Positions 51,248-59,295 of a DNA stretch of 64,000 bases are shown here, piece by piece. Numbering within the stretch: position 1 is the first letter of the stretch; each line of letters opens with the position of its first letter. Under the pieces are notes generated by a model. That model was not told the DNA's origin, searched no databases, and saw only the letters and a list, made by a program, of their open reading frames with translations. Made by a program: the position numbers and the translations under genes. The stretch is from Pseudomonadota bacterium (GTDB taxonomy: Bacteria; Pseudomonadota; Gammaproteobacteria; JAKAQQ01). The stretch is from NCBI GenBank assembly GCA_021810635.1, contig JAJZIH010000004.1, positions 76,131 through 140,130 on the forward strand, given 5' to 3'.

Positions 51248-53266
51248 ATGAAAGACCGGTTTCAACTGGTGGCTGGATATGCGCCGGCCGGAGATCAGCC
51301 CCAGGCGATCGAAGCCCTGACCCGTGGTCTTGAGGATGGGTTGGCCCGACAAGTGCTTCTGGGGGTGACGGGTTCGGGCAAAACTTTTACCATCGCGAAC
51401 CTCGTCCAAAACGTGCAGCGGACAACTCTGGTTTTGGCGCCCAACAAGACACTGGCCGCCCAGCTCTACGGTGAATTCAAGGGTTATTTTCCGGAGAATG
51501 CCGTCGAATATTTCGTCTCCTACTACGATTACTACCAGCCGGAGGCCTACGTCCCGCAGTCGGATACCTATATCGAGAAAGATGCCACGATCAACGAGCA
51601 CATCGAGCAGATGCGCCTGTCGGCCACCAAGGCGCTCCTCGAACGGAGGGATACGCTGATTGTGGCGACGGTTTCGGCCATTTATGGACTGGGTGACCCG
51701 GAATCCTACCACCGCATGGTGTTGCACCTGGCCGTGGGGGATCACGCGACCCAGCGGCAGATCCTGATCCATCTGGCGGATATGCAGTACCGGCGCAACG
51801 ATTACGAGCTTTTGCCGGGCTCGTTCCGGGTGCGCGGCGATCTCATCGACATCCACCCCAAGGAATCGGAGCGGGACGCCCTCCGGATCGAGCTGTCGGA
51901 CGACGAGGTGGCAACCCTCTGTTTGCTCGACCCCCTCACCGGCAAGGTCCGTGTCCGCCTGCAGCGGTATACCGTGTACCCGGGCAGCCACTACGTCACG
52001 CCCAGGGACCGGGTCCTCGAGGCCCTGACCCGGATCCGGACCGAGCTCGGCGAACGCCTGCAGTGGCTGCGGGAGCGAGGGCGGCTGCTCGAAGCCGAAC
52101 GGCTGGAACAGCGGACCCGTTTCGATCTGGAGATGATCCAGGAGCTGGGCTACTGTACGGGCATTGAAAACTATTCACGCCATTTGTCCGGCCGCGGTCC
52201 CGGAGAGGCGCCGCCCACGCTTTTTGATTACCTGCCGCCTCAGGCGTTGTTGGTGATCGATGAAAGTCACATCACGATCCCCCAGCTGGTGGGCATGTAC
52301 CGAGGTGACTACTCCCGCAAGTCGACCCTGGTCGAGTATGGGTTCCGGCTCCCCTCCGCCTTGGACAACCGGCCCCTGCGTTTCGAGGAGTTCGAGGCCC
52401 GCGCTCTGCAGACCGTCTATGTCTCCGCCACCCCCGGCCCCTATGAAACCCGGAAGGCCGATGCGACGGTCGAACAACTGGTGCGGCCGACCGGCCTCGT
52501 GGATCCTTCGGTTGAGGTCCGCCCAGCCATCACCCAGATCGATGACCTGCTCTCCGAGATCCGGCAGTGCGCCGGCCGCCAGGAACGGGTTCTCGTGACC
52601 ACGCTGACCAAGCGGATGGCCGAGGACCTGACCGAGTATCTTCAGGAAAACGGGGTCCGGGTCCGTTATCTGCATTCCGATATCGAGACCCTGGAACGAT
52701 CCGAGCTGATCCGGGAGTTGCGTAAAGGGACCTTCGATGTTTTGGTGGGGATCAACCTGTTGCGCGAAGGGCTCGACCTCCCGGAAGTGTCCCTAGTGGC
52801 CATCCTGGACGCCGATAAGGAAGGGTTCCTGCGTTCGGAAGGGGCTTTGATCCAGACCATCGGCCGGGCATCCCGCCACCTGTCGGGCCGGGCGATCCTC
52901 TATGCCGAGCACACGACGCCCTCAATGGCCCGGGCCATTCAGGAAACCGAGCGCCGCCGCCTGCGGCAGCTCGAATTCAATGAACGGCACCGGATCACGC
53001 CGCGTGGGATCCAGAAAGGAATCGTCGATGCCCTGGAAGGGGCGGGCGCGTACGCACCCGGTTCCCCGGGGCGGCGCGGAAGACGGTCCGCCGCCGGAGC
53101 CGGAGAGGCGACCTCCGATAGACGGAATCCGGAGGATCAGGCGCGTGAGATCCGGAAGCTGGAAGAGGAAATGCGTGAGCAGGCGCGGCTGCTGGAATTT
53201 GAAAAGGCGGCGGAGATCCGGGATCAGGTCATGCTGCTCAAAGAGCGTTTTTTGGGGTATTCGTGA
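51248..53266 (+). CDS. uvrB: Excinuclease ABC subunit B (its last 3 codons and stop are supplied by the inserted IS)
   Basis: 672 aa. Motifs: [16 protein letters not shown], the helicase motifs and the C-terminal UVR domain ([11 protein letters not shown]). It ends ...KERFLGYS*, with GGG TAT TCG TGA lying inside the IS left inverted repeat. Confidence 0.95.
53247..53254. repeat. Target-site duplication, left copy (GTTTTTTG)
   Basis: Identical 8-mer at 55813-55820, immediately outside the inverted repeats. Confidence 0.85.
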
Positions 53267-53279
53267 AAGTGGGTTGGGG
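53255..53279. repeat. IS left terminal inverted repeat, GGGTATTCGTGAAAGTGGGTTGGGG
   Basis: Matches the reverse complement of 55788-55812 at 20/25 positions. The GGGTAT...GGTTG pattern is reminiscent of ISPpu12-type ends (from memory). Confidence 0.8.
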
Positions 53280-53284
53280 CGGGG

Positions 53285-54679
53285 TCAAAGCTCCCCCGCC
53301 TCAATCATGCGGATGAGTGTTGAAATGTCCACGCCGTAGTTCTTCTCCCGCTTCTCATGCTTGTGTGGGTCATAGGCTTCGGGCGGGCGCAGCGGACGCT
53401 CTTTCTCCATCACCGGCAAGCCGTAGCCGATGGCATCATCCGGCAGGCCATAACCCATTTCGACCGGTTCCGGCTCGCGCTTTCGCTCGAATCTTGGACG
53501 CTTCTGTTTGTGGCTGTGAATGCTCTCGGTGAACAGCACCTTGGTCCGCAATGCCTCGAACGAGTAGCCCCGGCCTAGCCGGTTCATCACCCGAATCAGG
53601 CTGTTCAGCGACTCCGTGTAGGCGTTCGTCACTGGGTGCTCGAAGTAGTTGAGGATGAACGGCTGCCAGTTGGTGAAGGCGCGGATCAGGTCGGCGAAAT
53701 AGGGTCTGATCTCGGTCGAGATGACCCTATGCCACGCCTCGTAGCGCCGCATGGCGTCCTCTGGCGTCTCGGCCTCATAGATGCCGTAGAAGTCCTCCTT
53801 GAGCCTGTACGTCTCACCCAAGGCTGGGTAGTTCTTCGTCCAGCTGTCGAGATTCAGTCGCTCTTTATCGTTTAGGTCGCTCTCGCGCTTCAAGAGCACG
53901 AATCGGTCGTGCATCAGTCCGCGCTTCTGCTTGATGGTCAGTTCGCCTCGCAAGCCCTTGCGTGCCTTCTCCATCGCGTCGTTCGCCATTCTGACGACGT
54001 AGAACTTGTCGATGACGATGGTCGCCTCGGGTAGTACCGCACTGACCGCATCGCGGTAGGGCACCCACAGATCCATCGCCACGTACTGCACCTGGTCCCG
54101 GTTCGGCATCTTGAACAGGTACTTCTCCACTGTGTCCTTGTTCCGGTTGTGGAGCATGTCCACGATGGTGTTGTTCTGGATGTTCGAGACGACGCAGCGC
54201 GGCTTGTTGATGATGTGGATTTCGTTTATGCCCATCCACTTCGGCGTCTCGAAGTGGACGGTCTTCTCAAGCTCACCGATGTAGCCGCGGAAGATGTTGC
54301 GGATCGTCCCTTCAACTAGGCCGGTTTCATCGGCCAAAGAGGTGAAGGTGCGTTTCAACGCCTGTTGCCCGATCCACTTCACCAGCCGCTCGGTCATCAT
54401 GCGGTTCTCTGCTAGCACCGGCAGCGCCTGCGAGAAGGTCTTGCCACAGGATTGACAGCGCAACCGCTTGGTATCGATGTAGATGCCCACACGCTTGCCG
54501 TGCATCGGCATGTCTTTGAACACCTGCTCGCGGGTGCCCCACGAGGTCAGACGGTCGGACTGGCAGTGCGGGCAGGCTGAGGCCACGTCCACCGGCTCGG
54601 CGGTAACGTGGTAGTCGTGGTTGGTTTCCTCCACGCGCAGCACTCGGTACTGCGGGAGATTCAGGATGTTGGTGGGCAT
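53285..54679 (-). CDS. ISL3-family transposase
   Basis: ATG 54679 gives MPTNILNLPQYRVLRVEETNHDYHV, a zinc-ribbon (CPHCQS...CQSCGKTF), then WMGINEIHI, YVAMDLW.PYRDAV, VIDKFYVVRMAN and TNAYTESLNSLIRVMNR.GRGYSF. The track start at 55018 overlaps the toxin gene and is rejected. Confidence 0.9.
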   Translation of the reverse strand: MPTNILNLPQYRVLRVEETNHDYHVTAEPVDVASACPHCQSDRLTSWGTREQVFKDMPMHGKRVGIYIDTKRLRCQSCGKTFSQALPVLAENRMMTERLVKWIGQQALKRTFTSLADETGLVEGTIRNIFRGYIGELEKTVHFETPKWMGINEIHIINKPRCVVSNIQNNTIVDMLHNRNKDTVEKYLFKMPNRDQVQYVAMDLWVPYRDAVSAVLPEATIVIDKFYVVRMANDAMEKARKGLRGELTIKQKRGLMHDRFVLLKRESDLNDKERLNLDSWTKNYPALGETYRLKEDFYGIYEAETPEDAMRRYEAWHRVISTEIRPYFADLIRAFTNWQPFILNYFEHPVTNAYTESLNSLIRVMNRLGRGYSFEALRTKVLFTESIHSHKQKRPRFERKREPEPVEMGYGLPDDAIGYGLPVMEKERPLRPPEAYDPHKHEKREKNYGVDISTLIRMIEAGEL

Positions 54680-54746
54680 TTCAGGACGCGCTTTGCCAGG
54701 GGAACCGCGAAGCAGCCTTACGCCACCAAGACCCTTCCAGTCGAAT

Positions 54747-55472
54747 TCATGGTTCCATCCCATAATCATCAGAACGATCTTCTTCCATATTGCACACTCG
54801 GTCGAAGATGACGGCTGAGAGGTGGGAACAAGCCACTTTAACCCCCTGCCAGTCATGCCAGCGAGGATCAAGGTTCTTGTACTCGCTGAGTTCAGTTTCT
54901 TCCAAGTCATAGGGCAGCGCGTTGGCAAGCTGGACTTGTAACTGCTGTAGCGGAGATTCGCCACTCTCTTGCTGGTAGAGCCGGTCGAATGATAGTAGCG
55001 CATGGGCAACGCTCTCATCGCCCATGTGATCGGCCAAAGCCACGAAGTCCAGGTAATCCCGCGTGGCGTTGCGCTTGAGGATCAACACCCCCTTGATGCG
55101 CAGAATCTCACCCTCGGTCGGAACGGTGATTCGCGCCCCATGGTAATCCACCACAGTCGTTTCCAATGGTTCATCCCGAAGAAGCTGGCGAACCCCGGTT
55201 TCGATGCCGTCGAGGCTGCCAAGGATTTGCACGGGTCGCTGCACACGGGCCGTTTTCCAGCCAGCGACCGACTCAAGCTCGGCCAGCACTTCGTCAAAGC
55301 GGTGACGCAGATCGGTCAGCACGTGGTCGGCGTCACGGGAGAAGCGGTGTTCGGCATGGATGGCCGAGGCGGTTCCTCCAACCAACACGGCATCTGGCAG
55401 GATGCGCTGGAGCCGTGCTGCAGAGGACAAGACGAGTTCCCAGTCAGGCAGTGCTGCGGTGTTCTTCGGCAT
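54747..55472 (-). CDS. AbiEii/AbiGii (DUF1814) nucleotidyltransferase toxin family protein
   Basis: 241 aa. The N-terminal motif AVLVGGTASAIHAEHRFSRDADHV corresponds to the GG(T/S)A...R.S.D.D nucleotidyltransferase signature of type IV TA toxins. Confidence 0.7.
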   Translation of the reverse strand: MPKNTAALPDWELVLSSAARLQRILPDAVLVGGTASAIHAEHRFSRDADHVLTDLRHRFDEVLAELESVAGWKTARVQRPVQILGSLDGIETGVRQLLRDEPLETTVVDYHGARITVPTEGEILRIKGVLILKRNATRDYLDFVALADHMGDESVAHALLSFDRLYQQESGESPLQQLQVQLANALPYDLEETELSEYKNLDPRWHDWQGVKVACSHLSAVIFDRVCNMEEDRSDDYGMEP

Positions 55473-55671
55473 AGTGCATCCAGAAGTGATGACGTTGCGC
55501 GTAGGGGTCGGAGGCGTAAGGGCGGCACACGTGCTCCACCTTGTCGAGCAGGGCGCGGTCGGACAAAGCCGCCCGCCGTAGTTCCGCCCAATCCTGCCAC
55601 CGACCGCGTGAGATCACGTCGTCGATGGCGGCGAGGGTGAAGCGCTGATGGTTGAGGTGGCGATGAAGCAT
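55444..55671 (-). CDS. Small ORF overlapping the toxin start; candidate cognate antitoxin (family not recognised)
   Basis: 75 aa from ATG 55671 (79 aa from GTG 55683) with a 29-nt overlap onto the toxin gene. It sits directly downstream of the predicted promoter and repeat motif. No recognisable HTH was seen by eye. Confidence 0.4.
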   Translation of the reverse strand: MLHRHLNHQRFTLAAIDDVISRGRWQDWAELRRAALSDRALLDKVEHVCRPYASDPYAQRHHFWMHYAEEHRSTA

Positions 55672-55678
55672 GGCGAAC

Positions 55679-55697
55679 CACACACTTTTACGATTGT
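55679..55697. repeat. Internal copy 1 of the IR-core motif (CACACACTTTTACGATTGT)
   Basis: 17/19 identical to copy 2. It shares the core CACTTTT(A/G)CGA(T/A)T with the right terminal IR and lies between the predicted -10 and the small-ORF start. Confidence 0.7.
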
Positions 55698-55707
55698 CGA
55701 TGACTGT

Positions 55708-55736
55708 ATCTTACGCGAGCAGCGTGGAGGAAGCAA
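55708..55736 (-). promoter_or_regulatory. Putative sigma-70 promoter of the cargo/transposase operon
   Basis: On the minus strand: TTGCTT (55736-55731), a 17-nt spacer, then TAAGAT (55713-55708). IR-core repeats lie immediately upstream and downstream. Confidence 0.45.
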
Positions 55737-55753
55737 CACACTTTTGCGATTGT
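55735..55753. repeat. Internal copy 2 of the IR-core motif (AACACACTTTTGCGATTGT)
   Basis: Lies 56 bp from copy 1 and 57 bp from the terminal IR copy, and abuts the predicted -35. Confidence 0.7.
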
Positions 55754-55787
55754 GAGCAGCTTGCTGCTTTGCATTGGTTACAGAACT

Positions 55788-55812
55788 GCCCAATCCACTT
55801 TTGCGAATACCT
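55788..55812. repeat. IS right terminal inverted repeat (reverse complement AGGTATTCGCAAAAGTGGATTGGGC)
   Basis: Aligned by hand to 53255-53279, with mismatches at positions 1, 10, 11, 19 and 25. Confidence 0.8.
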
Positions 55813-55820
55813 GTTTTTTG
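55813..55820. repeat. Target-site duplication, right copy (GTTTTTTG)
   Basis: Identical to 53247-53254. It is followed by AAG CAG GCC AAC CCC TGA, the displaced original uvrB 3' end. Confidence 0.85.
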
Positions 55821-55925
55821 AAGCAGGCCAACCCCTGATGCCGGACCGGGCCTGCGTCTCAAGCCCGCAGGGTCCAGTCTTGTCAGGCTCCGGTGCGATA
55901 TGGTACTTTCACCCACTCTGAGAGG

Positions 55926-56002
55926 AAGGCGCGTAGCTCAGCTGGTTAGAGCACCACCTTGACATGGTGGGGGTCGTTGGTTCGAGTCCAATCGCGCCTA
56001 CC
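55926..56002 (+). tRNA. tRNA-Val (anticodon GAC)
   Basis: Hand-folded cloverleaf. The acceptor AGGCGCG pairs with CGCGCCT. D arm TAGCTCAGCTGGTTAGAGC, anticodon arm CCACC-TTGACAT-GGTGG, T arm GTTGG-TTCGAGT-CCAAT, encoded ACCA end. Near-identical to E. coli tRNA-Val(GAC). Confidence 0.95.
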
Positions 56003-56149
56003 AAGTAAAAATCAATAGGTTACCGATCCCATCCCCTCGGGCCTTTGGACGCAGGGTCCGTTTTTGTGTTGAAGGTCGGATGAGGTCGTTCGTGGTACAG
56101 AGGTCACGTTCGTGTCGGCTGCAACGCGAGCGGTGCTTCTCCCGAACCT

Positions 56150-56500
56150 TCAACTCGGTTGTGGACTCCTTACGCCAGCGCTTGATGCGCTCGAAGCTTC
56201 TGCCCGCGCTGCTGATCGATCGGAGGGTCGTCAAGACTCACCGTCACTCGCCCGTCCCGGACGACCATCCGGACTCCGGGGCGCCGTTCAAGACCCTGAA
56301 GTCACGGCTCGCTCTCCCTGAGCGTTTGGGCTTACTCGAGGACGCCCACGCTCACGGTCGGCCGCTCCTCCGCTGGGACAACCGGCAACCTCGCCAGGGC
56401 GGTCTCGGCTGGATGACCCCGGCCGTTGGGCATGAGGGCACCGTCCCGAAGCCGCCGGTGGGGCCCACCGCCACCTTGGATCCATCCGTCAAAACAGGCG
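56150..56500 (+). pseudogene. Decayed C-terminal fragment of an rve (integrase-core) DDE transposase
   Basis: Within track ORF 56080..56637. SKLLPALLIDRRVVKTHRHSPVPDDHPDSGAPFKTLKSRLALPERLGLLEDAHAHGRPLLRWDNRQPRQGGLGWMTPAV parallels the family pattern SK.VA.LLADLGV.KSHSRP.VSNDNPYSE.QFKTLKYRP.FP.RFGS.EDAR....FF.WYN.EHRHSG.G..TPA. The catalytic N-terminal part is absent and key residues are substituted. Confidence 0.6.
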
Positions 56501-56610
56501 GCGACACACCACCCGCCTGCCGGCTCATCTCATGGCACCAGGTGTTCCAAACGCATGGACACGTTCCGCCGGTGAAGATCCCGGGACCGTCTTTCGCTCG
56601 GGCAGTTCCA

Positions 56611-58194
56611 TCAGCGTTTGTGGCGTCGGGTATGTGAAGCTTCTTTCCGGAAGTGGAGCGGGAGAGTCACAAAGGACAGGGTTTCCGGTTGCCCAAAGGC
56701 ATTCACTCCGAAGGTCACGTAAGCGGTCCCTTCGTAGCGCTCACGCCAGCGTACCTCGAACGTGTTGGCGTTCCACGGAATGAGAACACCGCTGAAGGCC
56801 GGGTTTCCGAGGCTGAGCGTGAGTGCTCCGTGTTGTTCCTTCACGTGCGCCGTACCGTCAAAGTGGCTCCGGTAAAGACCGATGTAACGCACGAGAGGCA
56901 CAAGAGGGTGCGCGTACCGTTCTCGCGCCCGGACGAGATTTTCTTTGATGGCGTTTTCCCGTTCTTGTTCCTTCTTGCGAAAGCGGTACCAGGCGCGGCT
57001 CACATCGCGGTGTGGCAGGCCAAGGTAGGATTGGAGTACATCAAAAAGAACCCCTTCGGGCGCGAAGTTCTGGTCGAGGTTCGAGAGTACAACGACGCCG
57101 AGATGCGCGCTCGGGACGATCGCGAGCGCGGTCGACATCCCGTCGATGTTCCCCGGGTGCCAGATCAGCCGGTGTCCGCCGTATTCCTGGATGAAAAACC
57201 CGAAACCGTATGCGTAAAAGGGTTCACCGGGTGTCTGCACGCGTAACCAGCTGCCGACTGACGGGTTGTCTTCATGGATGAGCATCCAAGGGGTTTCAAT
57301 GGCGCGGATGACCGAAGGTGCAAGAACCTGTTTGTGGTCGTAGCGCCCATGGTCCATGAGCATCTCAAGCCAGTGACTCATGTCGAGCACGCTCGTATTG
57401 ATGCCGCCGACAGGGGCAAAGACATCCATGTTATGGGTCCAGTAGCGCGGAATCCGCGTGACGCGGCCGCCGATCACCGCGTAGGGGGCCGCGACATCCG
57501 GTTTCCCAGCGAGAGCTTCCTGCCGGGTGACCGTGCCCTTCATGTGCAGGGGTTGAAAGAGATCAAGCCGGACATAGCGGTTCCAGGTCATGCCGGTGAT
57601 CGCCGGAATGAACTGGCTTGCCGCAAGATACAAAGTGTTGTTGTAGCAAAAGTGGGTTCGAAAGGGATAGGTGGGTTTTTGGTATCGAAGCCTTCCCAGC
57701 ACATTTTTCACGGTATCGTAGGAGGTGTACCACATCGCGGTCGGATCGCAGTAGCCGCTCCGGTGCGTGAGCAGGTCACGGAGCGTGATCGCCTGCGTGA
57801 CGTACGCGCTTTTCAGGCGAAAACCCATGAGCTCATCGTGAACCGGGGTGCTCCAGCGCAGTTTCCCGGCGGCAACCAGCCGGCCCAGTGCGGCTGCCGT
57901 GAAGGCCTTGGTCAGAGACCCCAGCGTGAACAGTGTTTCGGGATTGGTGCGTCCCGGCCGGCCGAGCACGCGCACGCCGTAACCGTGTATATAGACGAGC
58001 TTGCCGTTCCTGACCACTGCCAGTGCGAGTCCGGGCACGTGCCAAAGGCGCATCGTCCTGCGGACGTAAGCGTTCAGGTGCGCAAGAGGCATGGGCGGCC
58101 CCGGATCCGCCCATGCGAAGGGTATGGCGGCCGACAGGACCCCCATCCAAACCGCAGCGGAAACAGACCACGCGGGGCCGATCGTTCTTTTCAT
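56611..58194 (-). CDS. Serine hydrolase of the class C beta-lactamase/PBP4* family with a C-terminal lipocalin-like extension
   Basis: ATG 58194 with a signal peptide (AVWMGVLSAAIPFAWA), SxxK (FTLGSLTKAF) and YxN (CYNNTLY). 527 aa. Confidence 0.85.
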   Translation of the reverse strand: MKRTIGPAWSVSAAVWMGVLSAAIPFAWADPGPPMPLAHLNAYVRRTMRLWHVPGLALAVVRNGKLVYIHGYGVRVLGRPGRTNPETLFTLGSLTKAFTAAALGRLVAAGKLRWSTPVHDELMGFRLKSAYVTQAITLRDLLTHRSGYCDPTAMWYTSYDTVKNVLGRLRYQKPTYPFRTHFCYNNTLYLAASQFIPAITGMTWNRYVRLDLFQPLHMKGTVTRQEALAGKPDVAAPYAVIGGRVTRIPRYWTHNMDVFAPVGGINTSVLDMSHWLEMLMDHGRYDHKQVLAPSVIRAIETPWMLIHEDNPSVGSWLRVQTPGEPFYAYGFGFFIQEYGGHRLIWHPGNIDGMSTALAIVPSAHLGVVVLSNLDQNFAPEGVLFDVLQSYLGLPHRDVSRAWYRFRKKEQERENAIKENLVRARERYAHPLVPLVRYIGLYRSHFDGTAHVKEQHGALTLSLGNPAFSGVLIPWNANTFEVRWRERYEGTAYVTFGVNAFGQPETLSFVTLPLHFRKEASHTRRHKR

Positions 58195-58305
58195 TCCGGG
58201 TTTCCCAACGCCTGCACCCTCTTGAGTATAACTCCCGGGGGGAGCGTGAAGGATCCCGTATTCTGGAGCTGCCAACCCGGCGAATTTTTGTGCGACACTA
58301 TCGCC

Positions 58306-59295
58306 ATGTCAGATCCATTGCCGGTTTTAAGAGCGCCACTTTCGACCTTCGGGGAAGTGCTGCGGCGTCATCGCTTGTCGCTGGCCCGCCGGCCCCTTGA
58401 GATCCTGCAGGTCAATGTGGGGAAACGGTGCAATCAGGCCTGTACCCACTGTCATGTCGAAGCGGGACCGAAACGGACTGAAATCATGACCGGACAGACG
58501 GTCGACCGGGTGCTGGAACTGCTCGACCGGTCGCCGGGGATCCCAACGGTCGATCTGACCGGAGGGGCGCCGGAACTGAATCCCCACTTCCGCCGTCTGG
58601 TGGTTGCGGCGCGTCGGGGCGGAAGGCAGGTGATCGACCGCTGCAACCTGACCGTTCTCTTTGAGCCCGGACAGGAAGAAACCGCCGGGTTTCTGGCAGA
58701 AAACCAGGTCACCGTGATTGCTTCCCTGCCCTGTTACAGTCGTGACAACGTGGACAAGCAGCGTGGGGTTGGAGTATTCGAACCCAGCCTGCGGGCCCTT
58801 CAGCAACTCAACGCATTGGGCTATGCGGCCCCCGGGAGTCCACTGGAGCTGCATCTGGTCTACAACCCGGTGGGTCCGTTTCTTCCGCCCGAGCAGACCC
58901 GGCTGGAAAAGGAATACAAAAAGCAGCTCGGGGAACATTATGGGATCCGTTTCAACCGTCTTTTGACGATCACCAACATGCCCATCAGCCGGTTTCTCCA
59001 CCAACTGCTTCGGGACCACGCACTTGAAGCCTATCAGACGCTTCTGGTCCAGTCTTTCAATCCTGAGACCGTCGCGGGCCTGATGTGTCGGAATCTGCTG
59101 TCCGTTGGATGGGATGGGCAGCTTTATGACTGTGATTTCAACCAAATGCTCGAGTTGCCACTGGGTGGGCGGCCACGGAGTCTCTGGGATATCAATGGTT
59201 TCGATGATCTGGCGAACGGCCCGATCGCCTGCGGTCCGCATTGCTTCGGCTGTACGGCCGGGGCAGGCAGTTCCTGCGGCGGTGCGCTCGCCTGA
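58306..59295 (+). CDS. arsS: Radical SAM/Cys-rich-domain protein of the ArsS (arsenosugar biosynthesis) family
   Basis: ATG 58306 gives LQVNVGKRCNQACTHCHVEAGP (CxxxCxxC), DLTGGAPELNP, NMPISRF and the C-terminal CGPHCFGCTAGAGSSCGGAL. The 1-kb 5' part of track ORF 57274..59295 is antisense to the hydrolase gene and is rejected. Confidence 0.75.
   Translation: MSDPLPVLRAPLSTFGEVLRRHRLSLARRPLEILQVNVGKRCNQACTHCHVEAGPKRTEIMTGQTVDRVLELLDRSPGIPTVDLTGGAPELNPHFRRLVVAARRGGRQVIDRCNLTVLFEPGQEETAGFLAENQVTVIASLPCYSRDNVDKQRGVGVFEPSLRALQQLNALGYAAPGSPLELHLVYNPVGPFLPPEQTRLEKEYKKQLGEHYGIRFNRLLTITNMPISRFLHQLLRDHALEAYQTLLVQSFNPETVAGLMCRNLLSVGWDGQLYDCDFNQMLELPLGGRPRSLWDINGFDDLANGPIACGPHCFGCTAGAGSSCGGALA

Follow-up and report, generated by a model that had tools for sequence, protein, structure and literature searches.

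An ISL3-family insertion sequence at the 3′ end of uvrB that very probably arrived with an AbiEii-type nucleotidyltransferase module as its passenger

Introduction

Does a two-gene module lying upstream of an ISL3-family transposase gene travel with that insertion sequence (IS), or does it only happen to be its neighbor? The question is raised by a 64-kb stretch of contig JAJZIH010000004.1 (assembly GCA_021810635.1, Pseudomonadota bacterium; positions 76,131 to 140,130), which is referred to below as the window, and to whose positions all coordinates refer. In this window, the extreme 3′ end of uvrB is occupied by a 2,558-bp element whose three genes all lie on the minus strand: the transposase gene tnpA, a gene for a 241-aa AbiEii-type nucleotidyltransferase (NTase), and a small open reading frame (ORF) of 75 aa. 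An original prediction, made from the DNA letters, had described a complete ISL3-family element that carries the other two genes as cargo. The analysis reported here indicates that it is very probably an intact, passenger-carrying ISL3 insertion sequence, which moved as one unit into the 3′ end of uvrB.

Results

Boundaries, Transposase, and Target Gene

Read along the coding strand, the element consists of a right inverted repeat (IRR), a leader of ~140 bp, the 75-aa gene, the NTase gene, a 67-nt spacer, tnpA, and a left inverted repeat (IRL), as listed in Table 1. The two 25-nt inverted repeats (IRs) are imperfect, matching at 20 of 25 positions, and are abutted on their outer sides by a perfect 8-bp target-site duplication (TSD), GTTTTTTG. 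On the plus strand the letters of IRR are GCCCAATCCACTTTTGCGAATACCT, directly followed by GTTTTTTG. All of these coordinates, the 20/25 identity, and the perfect TSD were verified base for base. A repeat search listed IRL and IRR as its longest inverted repeat (23 nt, 87%), and the degenerate 23-nt IR pattern gave 2 matches in the window against 0.00 expected from 100 shuffles. Neither the repeat search nor the IR pattern scan detected a repeat-like sequence between tnpA and the NTase gene. The boundaries of the element and its 8-bp duplication are established. Terminal inverted repeats of the ISL3 family are imperfect and approximately 15–39 bp long.

Table 1. Features of the element and its target in the window, followed by related elements with other cargo.
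Feature	Position or length	Strand	Sequence or TSD	Content or basis
uvrB, target gene	51248–53266	+		NCBIfam UvrB equivalog, 1022 bits
Left TSD copy	53247–53254		GTTTTTTG	direct read; identical to 55813–55820
IRL	53255–53279	+	GGGTATTCGTGAAAGTGGGTTGGGG	read and repeat finding; same repeat type in related elements
tnpA, 464-aa ISL3-family DDE transposase	53285–54679	−		Pfam and NCBIfam; ATG at 54679
Variable spacer, NTase stop to tnpA start, 67 nt	54680–54746	−
Cargo gene 2, 241-aa AbiEii/DUF1814 NTase, putative toxin	54747–55472	−		Pfam PF08843
Cargo gene 1, 75-aa all-helical protein, putative antitoxin	55444–55671	−		pairing and coding constraint
R3, innermost IR-like copy, between −10-like box and cargo start codon	55678–55693	−
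Promoter-like element	55708–55736	−		by eye and conserved in leader alignment; weak prediction
R2, middle IR-like copy, overlapping −35-like box	55734–55749	−		repeat search and leader alignment
R1 core, within IRR	55791–55806	−		direct repeat search
IRR (also R1)	55788–55812	−	AGGTATTCGCAAAAGTGGATTGGGC (minus strand)	read and repeat finding
Right TSD copy	55813–55820		GTTTTTTG	direct read
Orphaned uvrB end	55821–55838	+	AAG CAG GCC AAC CCC TGA	K Q A N P stop
L005 (Burkholderia multivorans plasmid)	~7.5 kb		GGGGTTAC	type ISP restriction enzyme, interrupted by ISBmu23
L114	6,336 bp		CATTTTTA	intact 1590-aa type ISP restriction-modification enzyme
L107	6,252 bp		AAACTTTT	small ORF, DUF6036 NTase, GIY-YIG, DUF5710, others
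L122	6,023 bp		AATTTAAT	canonical AbiEii (91.9 bits), others
L127	2,766 bp		GTAAAAAT	DUF5397 and Cas2/VapD-like gene
L100, L104	1,827 bp		GTCTTTTT, CATCCGGC	single ~92-aa ORF

The family assignment of the transposase is established by three Pfam matches (DDE_Tnp_ISL3, 1.7e-58; Zn_ribbon_ISL3, 1.7e-09; HTH_Tnp_ISL3, 9.2e-08) and by the NCBIfam equivalog transpos_ISL3, which scored 276.5 bits (3.4e-82) against a cut-off of 180 bits. Two longer versions of the gene can be read. Public gene calls give 494 aa, overlapping the NTase gene by 23 nt, and a 577-aa ORF (53285–55018, minus strand) continues the transposase frame across the spacer and into the 3′ portion of the NTase gene. The upstream extension is not kept in other copies, whose spacers range from 2 to 202 nt (202 nt in the plasmid copy described below and 2–6 nt in elements with other cargo). 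The 464-aa model is taken as the right one because the ATG at 54679 is exactly where nucleotide homology between loci sets in, and the extended versions are probably annotation artefacts.

The whole element would have landed in a run rich in T at the very 3′ end of uvrB, by way of the transposition pathway assumed for the ISL3 family. The last 12 nt of uvrB (53255–53266, GGG TAT TCG TGA) are now supplied by IRL, from which G, Y, S, and the stop are read, and UvrB ends in ...KERFLGYS*. When the element and one TSD copy were removed in silico, the junction became ...AAAGAGCGTTTTTTGAAGCAGGCC... and the reading frame was restored to ...KERFLKQANP*, exactly as had been predicted. The gene therefore loses only its last five codons, KQANP being replaced by GYS, and the UvrB tail has 11 residues instead of the restored 13. 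The remodeling of the C-terminus had been expected to be slight, and it is: the Pfam UVR motif at residues 633–666 is intact, and the tails that follow the AAxxRDxI motif vary from 9 to 50 residues and are unconserved among the 120 UvrB C-termini listed. Since the UVR domain is untouched and the tail is naturally variable, a phenotypic effect on UvrB is unlikely, and the change is presumably neutral.

Copies at Unrelated Sites

Evidence for the passenger reading comes from other copies. A megablast search of plasmids detected the same unit in the Pseudomonas putida KF715 plasmid pKF715A, with 85.7% nucleotide identity over 97% of the element, an identical gene order, its own inverted repeats, and its own 8-bp TSD, GAAAAACA. 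A metagenome contig (locus L105) bears a third copy, which is 2,753 bp long, has AAATAAGG as its TSD, and encodes an NTase and a transposase that are 93% and 87% identical, respectively. The proteins of these two copies share 84–93% identity with those of the window, and their sites are unrelated to the uvrB site. Both thus repeat the IRR–small ORF–NTase–tnpA–IRL unit with termini of the same type and perfect TSDs of their own, which bears out the original prediction that the AbiEii-type gene and the small ORF are passengers. Further copies linked to tnpA (L020, L021, L023, L030, L034, and L036) were present in metagenome-assembled genomes (MAGs) and genomes, including Verrucomicrobia bacterium LP2A. 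The cargo moves with the transposase. The complete ISL3-family element that had been predicted was accordingly recovered in every part: a DDE transposase with zinc-ribbon and helix-turn-helix (HTH) domains, imperfect IRs, an 8-bp TSD, and mobility to multiple sites.

The module also exists away from the IS. In an NTase scan with one genome per species, 247 relatives were detected; the analysis covered the best 80 of them (hereafter the 80 genome loci), and an ISL3 transposase or its remnants lay downstream of the NTase gene in only about a dozen. The IS-free copies sit among housekeeping or other genes. Blocks of homology stop exactly at the NTase stop codon and start at the start codon of the small ORF or ~80 bp upstream of it, and genomes assigned to Pseudomonadota, Verrucomicrobiota, Desulfobulbus, Polyangiaceae, and Chloroflexi contain close homologues of the module, with protein identities that reach 95%. 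The small ORF and NTase gene are a small cassette in their own right, which was picked up by this IS lineage. Among the IS-free copies, one in a Candidatus Competibacter MAG (L052 3362–8171) lies between ORFs whose N-termini, read by eye, resemble the HsdM and HsdS subunits of type I restriction-modification systems. Another, in Ectothiorhodospira shaposhnikovii (L025 6747–7862), adjoins a gene for a 371-aa protein, the N-terminal 70 residues of which closely resemble, also by eye, those of the Fic cargo of a related element (L113).

The Two Cargo Genes

The 241-aa protein matched the Pfam family AbiEii (PF08843) with 29.7 bits against a cut-off of 22.5 bits, which confirms the DUF1814 assignment of the original prediction; 19 of 21 diverse relatives matched the same family, and 6216 NTase homologues were counted. 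In the alignment of 21 sequences, which extends down to 70% identity, G32, G33, S45, D47, D49, R134, D139, and D142 are invariant, and K127 is conserved in at least 90%. The NTase signature, hGG followed by S/T-x-D-x-D and a downstream K/R/D motif, is present, and the local match to canonical AbiEii covers exactly this catalytic motif region. Judged by sequence, the protein is a divergent member of the AbiEii/DUF1814 family.

The small ORF encodes 75 aa from ATG, or 79 aa from a GTG at 55683, and its 3′ end overlaps the start of the NTase gene by 29 nt. The two genes occur together in 77 of the 80 genome loci. The frame of the small ORF is intact and of the same length in 63 of 78 copies, and pairwise differences at codon positions 1, 2, and 3 numbered 17852, 11951, and 57183, respectively. 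This codon-position bias, together with the pairing, indicates that the predicted small ORF is a real gene. Its homologues number 1339; among the 120 listed, all named ones are hypothetical and none has a Pfam domain. AlphaFold2 modeled the 75-aa protein as five helices with a pLDDT of 82.7, for which a search of Protein Data Bank (PDB) folds returned generic helical-repeat proteins with E > 1. The small ORF is a conserved coding gene that partners the NTase and belongs to no known family. No Pfam, NCBIfam, or PADLOC match was obtained for it, so that the AbiEi antitoxin (COG5340, winged HTH) is not recognized in the upstream partner. The AbiE label given in the original prediction thus holds for the domain family of the NTase and does not extend to its partner, which is an uncharacterized helical protein.

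The two cargo genes may form a toxin–antitoxin (TA) pair, as suggested by analogy with the MenT toxins, which add nucleotides to the 3′ ends of tRNA and in which a phospho-acceptor Ser/Thr lies in T39-x-D41 of MenT1 and S78-x-D80 of MenT3 (PMC7450476, PMC10435456, PMC11375011). The invariant S45, two residues ahead of D47, would correspond to this phospho-acceptor. Like the MenT toxins, the NTase might then extend the 3′ ends of tRNAs by nucleotides and so block translation, and the 75-aa protein encoded upstream might neutralize it, as in the MenA1/MenT1 layout. Such a pair could benefit the element through addiction, in which loss of the IS is punished, through abortive-infection defence of the host, or through both. 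The toxin-type cargos of sister elements described next, among them a type ISP enzyme and a Fic protein, point likewise to an addiction or defence payoff.

Related Elements with Other Cargo

Relatives of tnpA were collected from plasmid matches to the transposase half of the element and from a metagenome scan with the transposase. At 66–91% amino-acid identity, they are bounded by the same repeat type and differ in what lies between IRR and tnpA (Table 1); the close relatives in the transposase tree are 79–92% identical, L122 is 72% identical, and L127 is 66% identical. The Fic protein of L113 is cargo in an element with no matching TSD. In a neighbor-joining transposase tree, drawn without bootstrap values, cargo types are interleaved, which suggests repeated cargo exchange. 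Runs of A or T occur in most (~10) of 14 tabulated target duplications, and GTTTTTTG of the window fits this preference.

Several side observations concern these relatives. Both IRs with unequal 8-bp flanks were read in L004 5757–11845 (Xanthomonas citri pv. phaseoli var. fuscans plasmid pF), L113, L149/L151/L152, L021, and L030. Rearrangement after insertion, recombination between copies, or one-ended events would fit this. On Burkholderia/Pandoraea plasmids, the type ISP cargo gene is disrupted by other ISs (ISBmu23, ISPpn1). Two loci on contig OFEK01000023.1 (240,449 bp), L107 and L108, are identical including their flanks and lie 120,195 bp apart; this contig probably results from the assembly of a ~120-kb circular replicon as a head-to-tail dimer, not from two insertions. 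A C-terminal domain of ~100 aa with no Pfam match is common to the DUF6036 NTase of L107 (5622–6521), the Fic/DOC protein of L113 (6535–7656), and the canonical AbiEii protein of L122 (641–1678); in this domain, the Fic protein is 55% identical to the NTase (E = 2e-33) and 36% identical to AbiEii (E = 9e-16). The domain resembles a shared module to which interchangeable toxin heads are attached, and the 241-aa protein of the window, inspected by eye, seemingly lacks it.

The leader was aligned over the first ~185 bp inward from IRR in ten elements with six cargo categories. At the IRR end only, three copies of the IR core ATCG[T/C]AAAAG[T/C]GTGTTG (R1 to R3) recur with ~56–57-bp phasing. All ten elements conserve R1 and R2, and nine of them have a clear R3 and −10-like box, both of which are degenerate in L149. 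The relatives with tnpA 82–91% identical also possess the ~140-bp leader with three phased copies, and the arrangement was read at L001 5560–5695, L005 17420–17554, and L004 11715–11845. In the window, the promoter-like element has a −35 box TTGCTT (55736–55731), a 17-nt spacer, and a −10 box TAAGAT (55713–55708); in relatives, TAAGAT or TATGAT lies between R2 and R3, 17 nt past a TTG-containing −35-like box. In the elements whose cargo start codon was read (window, L100, L114/L005), it lies 3–7 nt after R3. L027 has a full repeat-like sequence with an A/T-rich flank where the innermost copy would lie. The repeats R1 to R3 belong to the IS and not to the module, because they occur alongside unrelated cargo and distant IS-free module copies lack them. 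That they are antitoxin operators of the module was considered and rejected, as the same repeats and phasing occur with unrelated cargo.

These features admit a model, in which the cargo and tnpA would be transcribed from the leader promoter, and R2 and R3 would be transposase-binding sites that bracket it and couple the expression of both. A cargo slot would extend from the third IR-like repeat to the tnpA start codon, in which toxin and defence cassettes (small ORF–AbiEii, canonical AbiEii, DUF6036 NTase, Fic, type ISP, Cas2/VapD-like, and GIY-YIG) might be exchanged. Binding of the transposase to the two promoter-bracketing internal repeats would then co-regulate cargo and transposase. The broader idea of an ISL3 clade that acts as a defence and addiction shuttle, with a dedicated promoter-equipped cargo slot, is offered as a tentative one, and we consider it possible rather than likely.

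Age of the Insertion and Alternative Explanations

All contigs of the host lineage (~10 ENA, JGI, NCBI, and Logan samples) carry the element at the uvrB site, with 0 mismatches within it and 3–5 single-nucleotide polymorphisms (SNPs) per 7–10 kb of flank. In host contigs of 78–154 kb, the assembly runs across the element without a break, and no more than one genomic context was seen, which fits a single copy per genome. Look-ups by the neighboring aminotransferase and by the NTase returned only IS-bearing contigs. One relative (L008) is 94.8% identical over 8 kb upstream and has uvrB followed directly by tRNA-Val with no IS. It was rejected as an empty site, since it diverges completely from window position 53016 (L008 1–707), with a UvrB end of ...RLKRLELGIA*, another tRNA-Val allele, and thrS directly after. 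The segment with the uvrB 3′ end and tRNA-Val was exchanged through recombination in one of the lineages, or else the contig is a chimera.

Beyond the orphaned uvrB end, tRNA-Val(GAC) lies at 55927–56003, 107 nt from the element, and was the only match of an Rfam scan. Contigs of MAG GCA_027326975.1 and of one ENA sample (L007, L013, L016) are 100% identical to the window through the end of tRNA-Val at 56003, differ from 56004, and resume similarity at 58345 with only 82.6% identity. A 554-aa ORF of the beta-lactamase family lies in the intervening stretch (56004–58344), which resembles a variable island at a tRNA integration hotspot or may instead be a chimera of binning or assembly.

Several results count against the interpretation given so far or against parts of it. 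Regarding the insertion event, an exact 27-nt search of metagenome contigs for the restored junction gave 0 matches, and a protein search with the restored C-terminal 227 aa of UvrB gave only fragments of ≤69% identity, none from the host lineage; matching TSDs are absent in L021, L030, L113, L149, and L004. Regarding the bond between IS and cargo, ~68 of the 80 module loci do not adjoin an ISL3 transposase, so the module is not intrinsically part of the IS. The leader promoter fell below the threshold of a consensus promoter scan of the element, and this promoter and terminator scan gave nothing useful. Regarding function, the PADLOC AbiEii model matched the NTase weakly (E = 0.0041); single-sequence and profile searches of PDB sequences with the NTase found no solved MenT or AbiEii protein, with matches at chance level only (Tus and Elongator proteins); and the AlphaFold2 model of the NTase reached a mean pLDDT of 40.4, from a shallow alignment of 85–95% identical sequences only. 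The PDB fold search with the 75-aa model returned nothing at E ≤ 0.001 (best E, 1.7), nor did it detect similarity to MenA1 or another solved antitoxin.

Among the alternatives, the one that survives best is that the element is an immobile and inactive fossil, fixed long ago, with a perfect TSD that reflects slow drift. It is favored by the same site with 0 SNPs and no empty allele found in ~10 samples, by one copy per genome context, and by the 5 of 25 IR positions that differ. We nevertheless regard it as unlikely: all three genes have their full length and no interruption, the TSD is perfect, and imperfect IRs are also seen in copies with fresh TSDs. The host population is, moreover, nearly clonal, as judged from the 3–5 SNPs in its 7–10-kb flanks, and fixation in such a sample therefore says little about age. 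A recent insertion, as first proposed, agrees with the perfect TSD, the intact genes, and the lack of polymorphism, whereas the empty site that would have marked it was not found and every sampled host contig carries the element; recent entry is plausible.

Second, the two upstream genes might be accessory factors of the element, namely regulators of transposition or target choice, with a non-toxic role for the NTase. Gene order, orientation, and tight spacing to tnpA are indeed conserved, the smallest relatives (1,827 bp; L100 and L104) still have one small ORF upstream of tnpA, and the NTase is a divergent family member known here from sequence. Against this, the slot in sister elements holds unrelated genes (type ISP, Fic, DUF6036, Cas2/VapD-like, and GIY-YIG), which is too variable for a dedicated transposition cofactor; the module is frequent and conserved also at loci that lack a transposase; and, as in MenT toxins (PMC11375011), neither the catalytic NTase motif nor the phospho-acceptor-like Ser that precedes DxD varies. 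An accessory role is hence improbable.

The weakest alternative, a plain ISL3 IS beside a resident TA module, with the distal IRR as a chance or fossil look-alike, can draw on the module's occurrence without an ISL3 transposase in most genome loci and on the homology breaks exactly at the NTase stop and the tnpA start, which mark two separable blocks, but it is effectively refuted: the 8-bp TSD encloses the whole 2,558-bp unit and not the transposase block alone, nothing repeat-like separates tnpA from the NTase gene, whole-unit removal restores the uvrB frame, and, with the independent perfect TSDs of the composite unit at two other unrelated sites, three independent insertions rule it out.

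Discussion

An IS that moved into uvrB together with its two cargo genes has precedents. The passengers of ISPpu12, an ISL3 element, include lspA and a merR-like gene. They also include czcD (PMC3735179), and ISPst2, an ISL3 element of 2,985 bp with the TSDs TTTTTAAA and CAAAAAAG, carries an ArsR regulator and a permease (PMC6305408). The present element resembles both in its ISL3 transposase, its imperfect ~24–25-bp IRs starting with GGGTAT, its 8-bp A/T-rich TSDs, and passenger genes that lie inside the IRs and move with the element, the TSD here enclosing tnpA and two cargo genes. It differs in that its passengers are a toxin-type NTase and a small partner instead of metal or transport genes, and in its repeat core, GGGTATTCGTAAAAGTGG here versus GGGTATCCGGAATTT there. 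RefSeq labels the close relatives generically as "ISL3 family transposase", with no named element.

TA pairs adjoining a transposition gene are known inside Tn3-family transposons (Lima-Mendez et al. 2020, PMC7157771), where they have been proposed to be part of the transposition module or to stabilize the element (PMC7157771). The likeness lies in the location of a pair, putative in our case, inside a transposon, whereas Tn3 elements combine a DDE transposase with a resolvase, transpose replicatively, and carry type II pairs (e.g., ParE, Gp49, and PIN) instead of DUF1814 NTases. A statistical link of type VII TA systems with IS and transposon clusters is cited in a passage of a review (PMC12548467). 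In a full-text literature search, ISL3 and AbiEii were mentioned together in four papers, with neither term in any title or abstract. Passenger-carrying ISL3 elements and TA-bearing transposons are hence already known, and the element belongs among them; the cargo-slot pattern and the repeat-bearing leader may be the new parts.

As for the cargo, the family of the putative toxin (PF08843) and the bicistronic, overlapping gene layout recall AbiE, whose defining AbiEi antitoxin with its winged-helix N-terminal domain (COG5340) is absent here; for this reason, the layout resembles MenAT1 of Mycobacterium tuberculosis rather than canonical AbiE. Short upstream antitoxins for DUF1814 toxins are documented, such as the 68-aa MenA1 (PMC10435456, PMC11375011). 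In both systems, the gene of a short helical protein lies directly upstream of a DUF1814 NTase gene, and a Ser/Thr precedes the catalytic Asp by two residues (S45-x-D47 here and T39-x-D41 in MenT1). The differences are that the 75-aa protein has no detectable sequence or fold similarity to MenA1, that five helices are predicted for it in place of a two-helix V shape, and that the 241-aa protein lacks sequence similarity to MenT1.

To this genome, the event brought a mobile-element insertion of an ordinary sort, which probably leaves UvrB unaffected. Taken alone, the locus is modestly interesting, and the clade-level pattern adds somewhat to that. It provides an example of how small toxin or defence cassettes travel, since a 2.6-kb IS can place an NTase module in any A/T-rich run. 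The 75-aa partner defines an uncharacterized family of >1,300 proteins, and if it is an antitoxin, it would represent another solution for controlling DUF1814 toxins. If the leader proves to be a transposase-controlled promoter, this clade would offer a simple model for coupling cargo expression to transposition.

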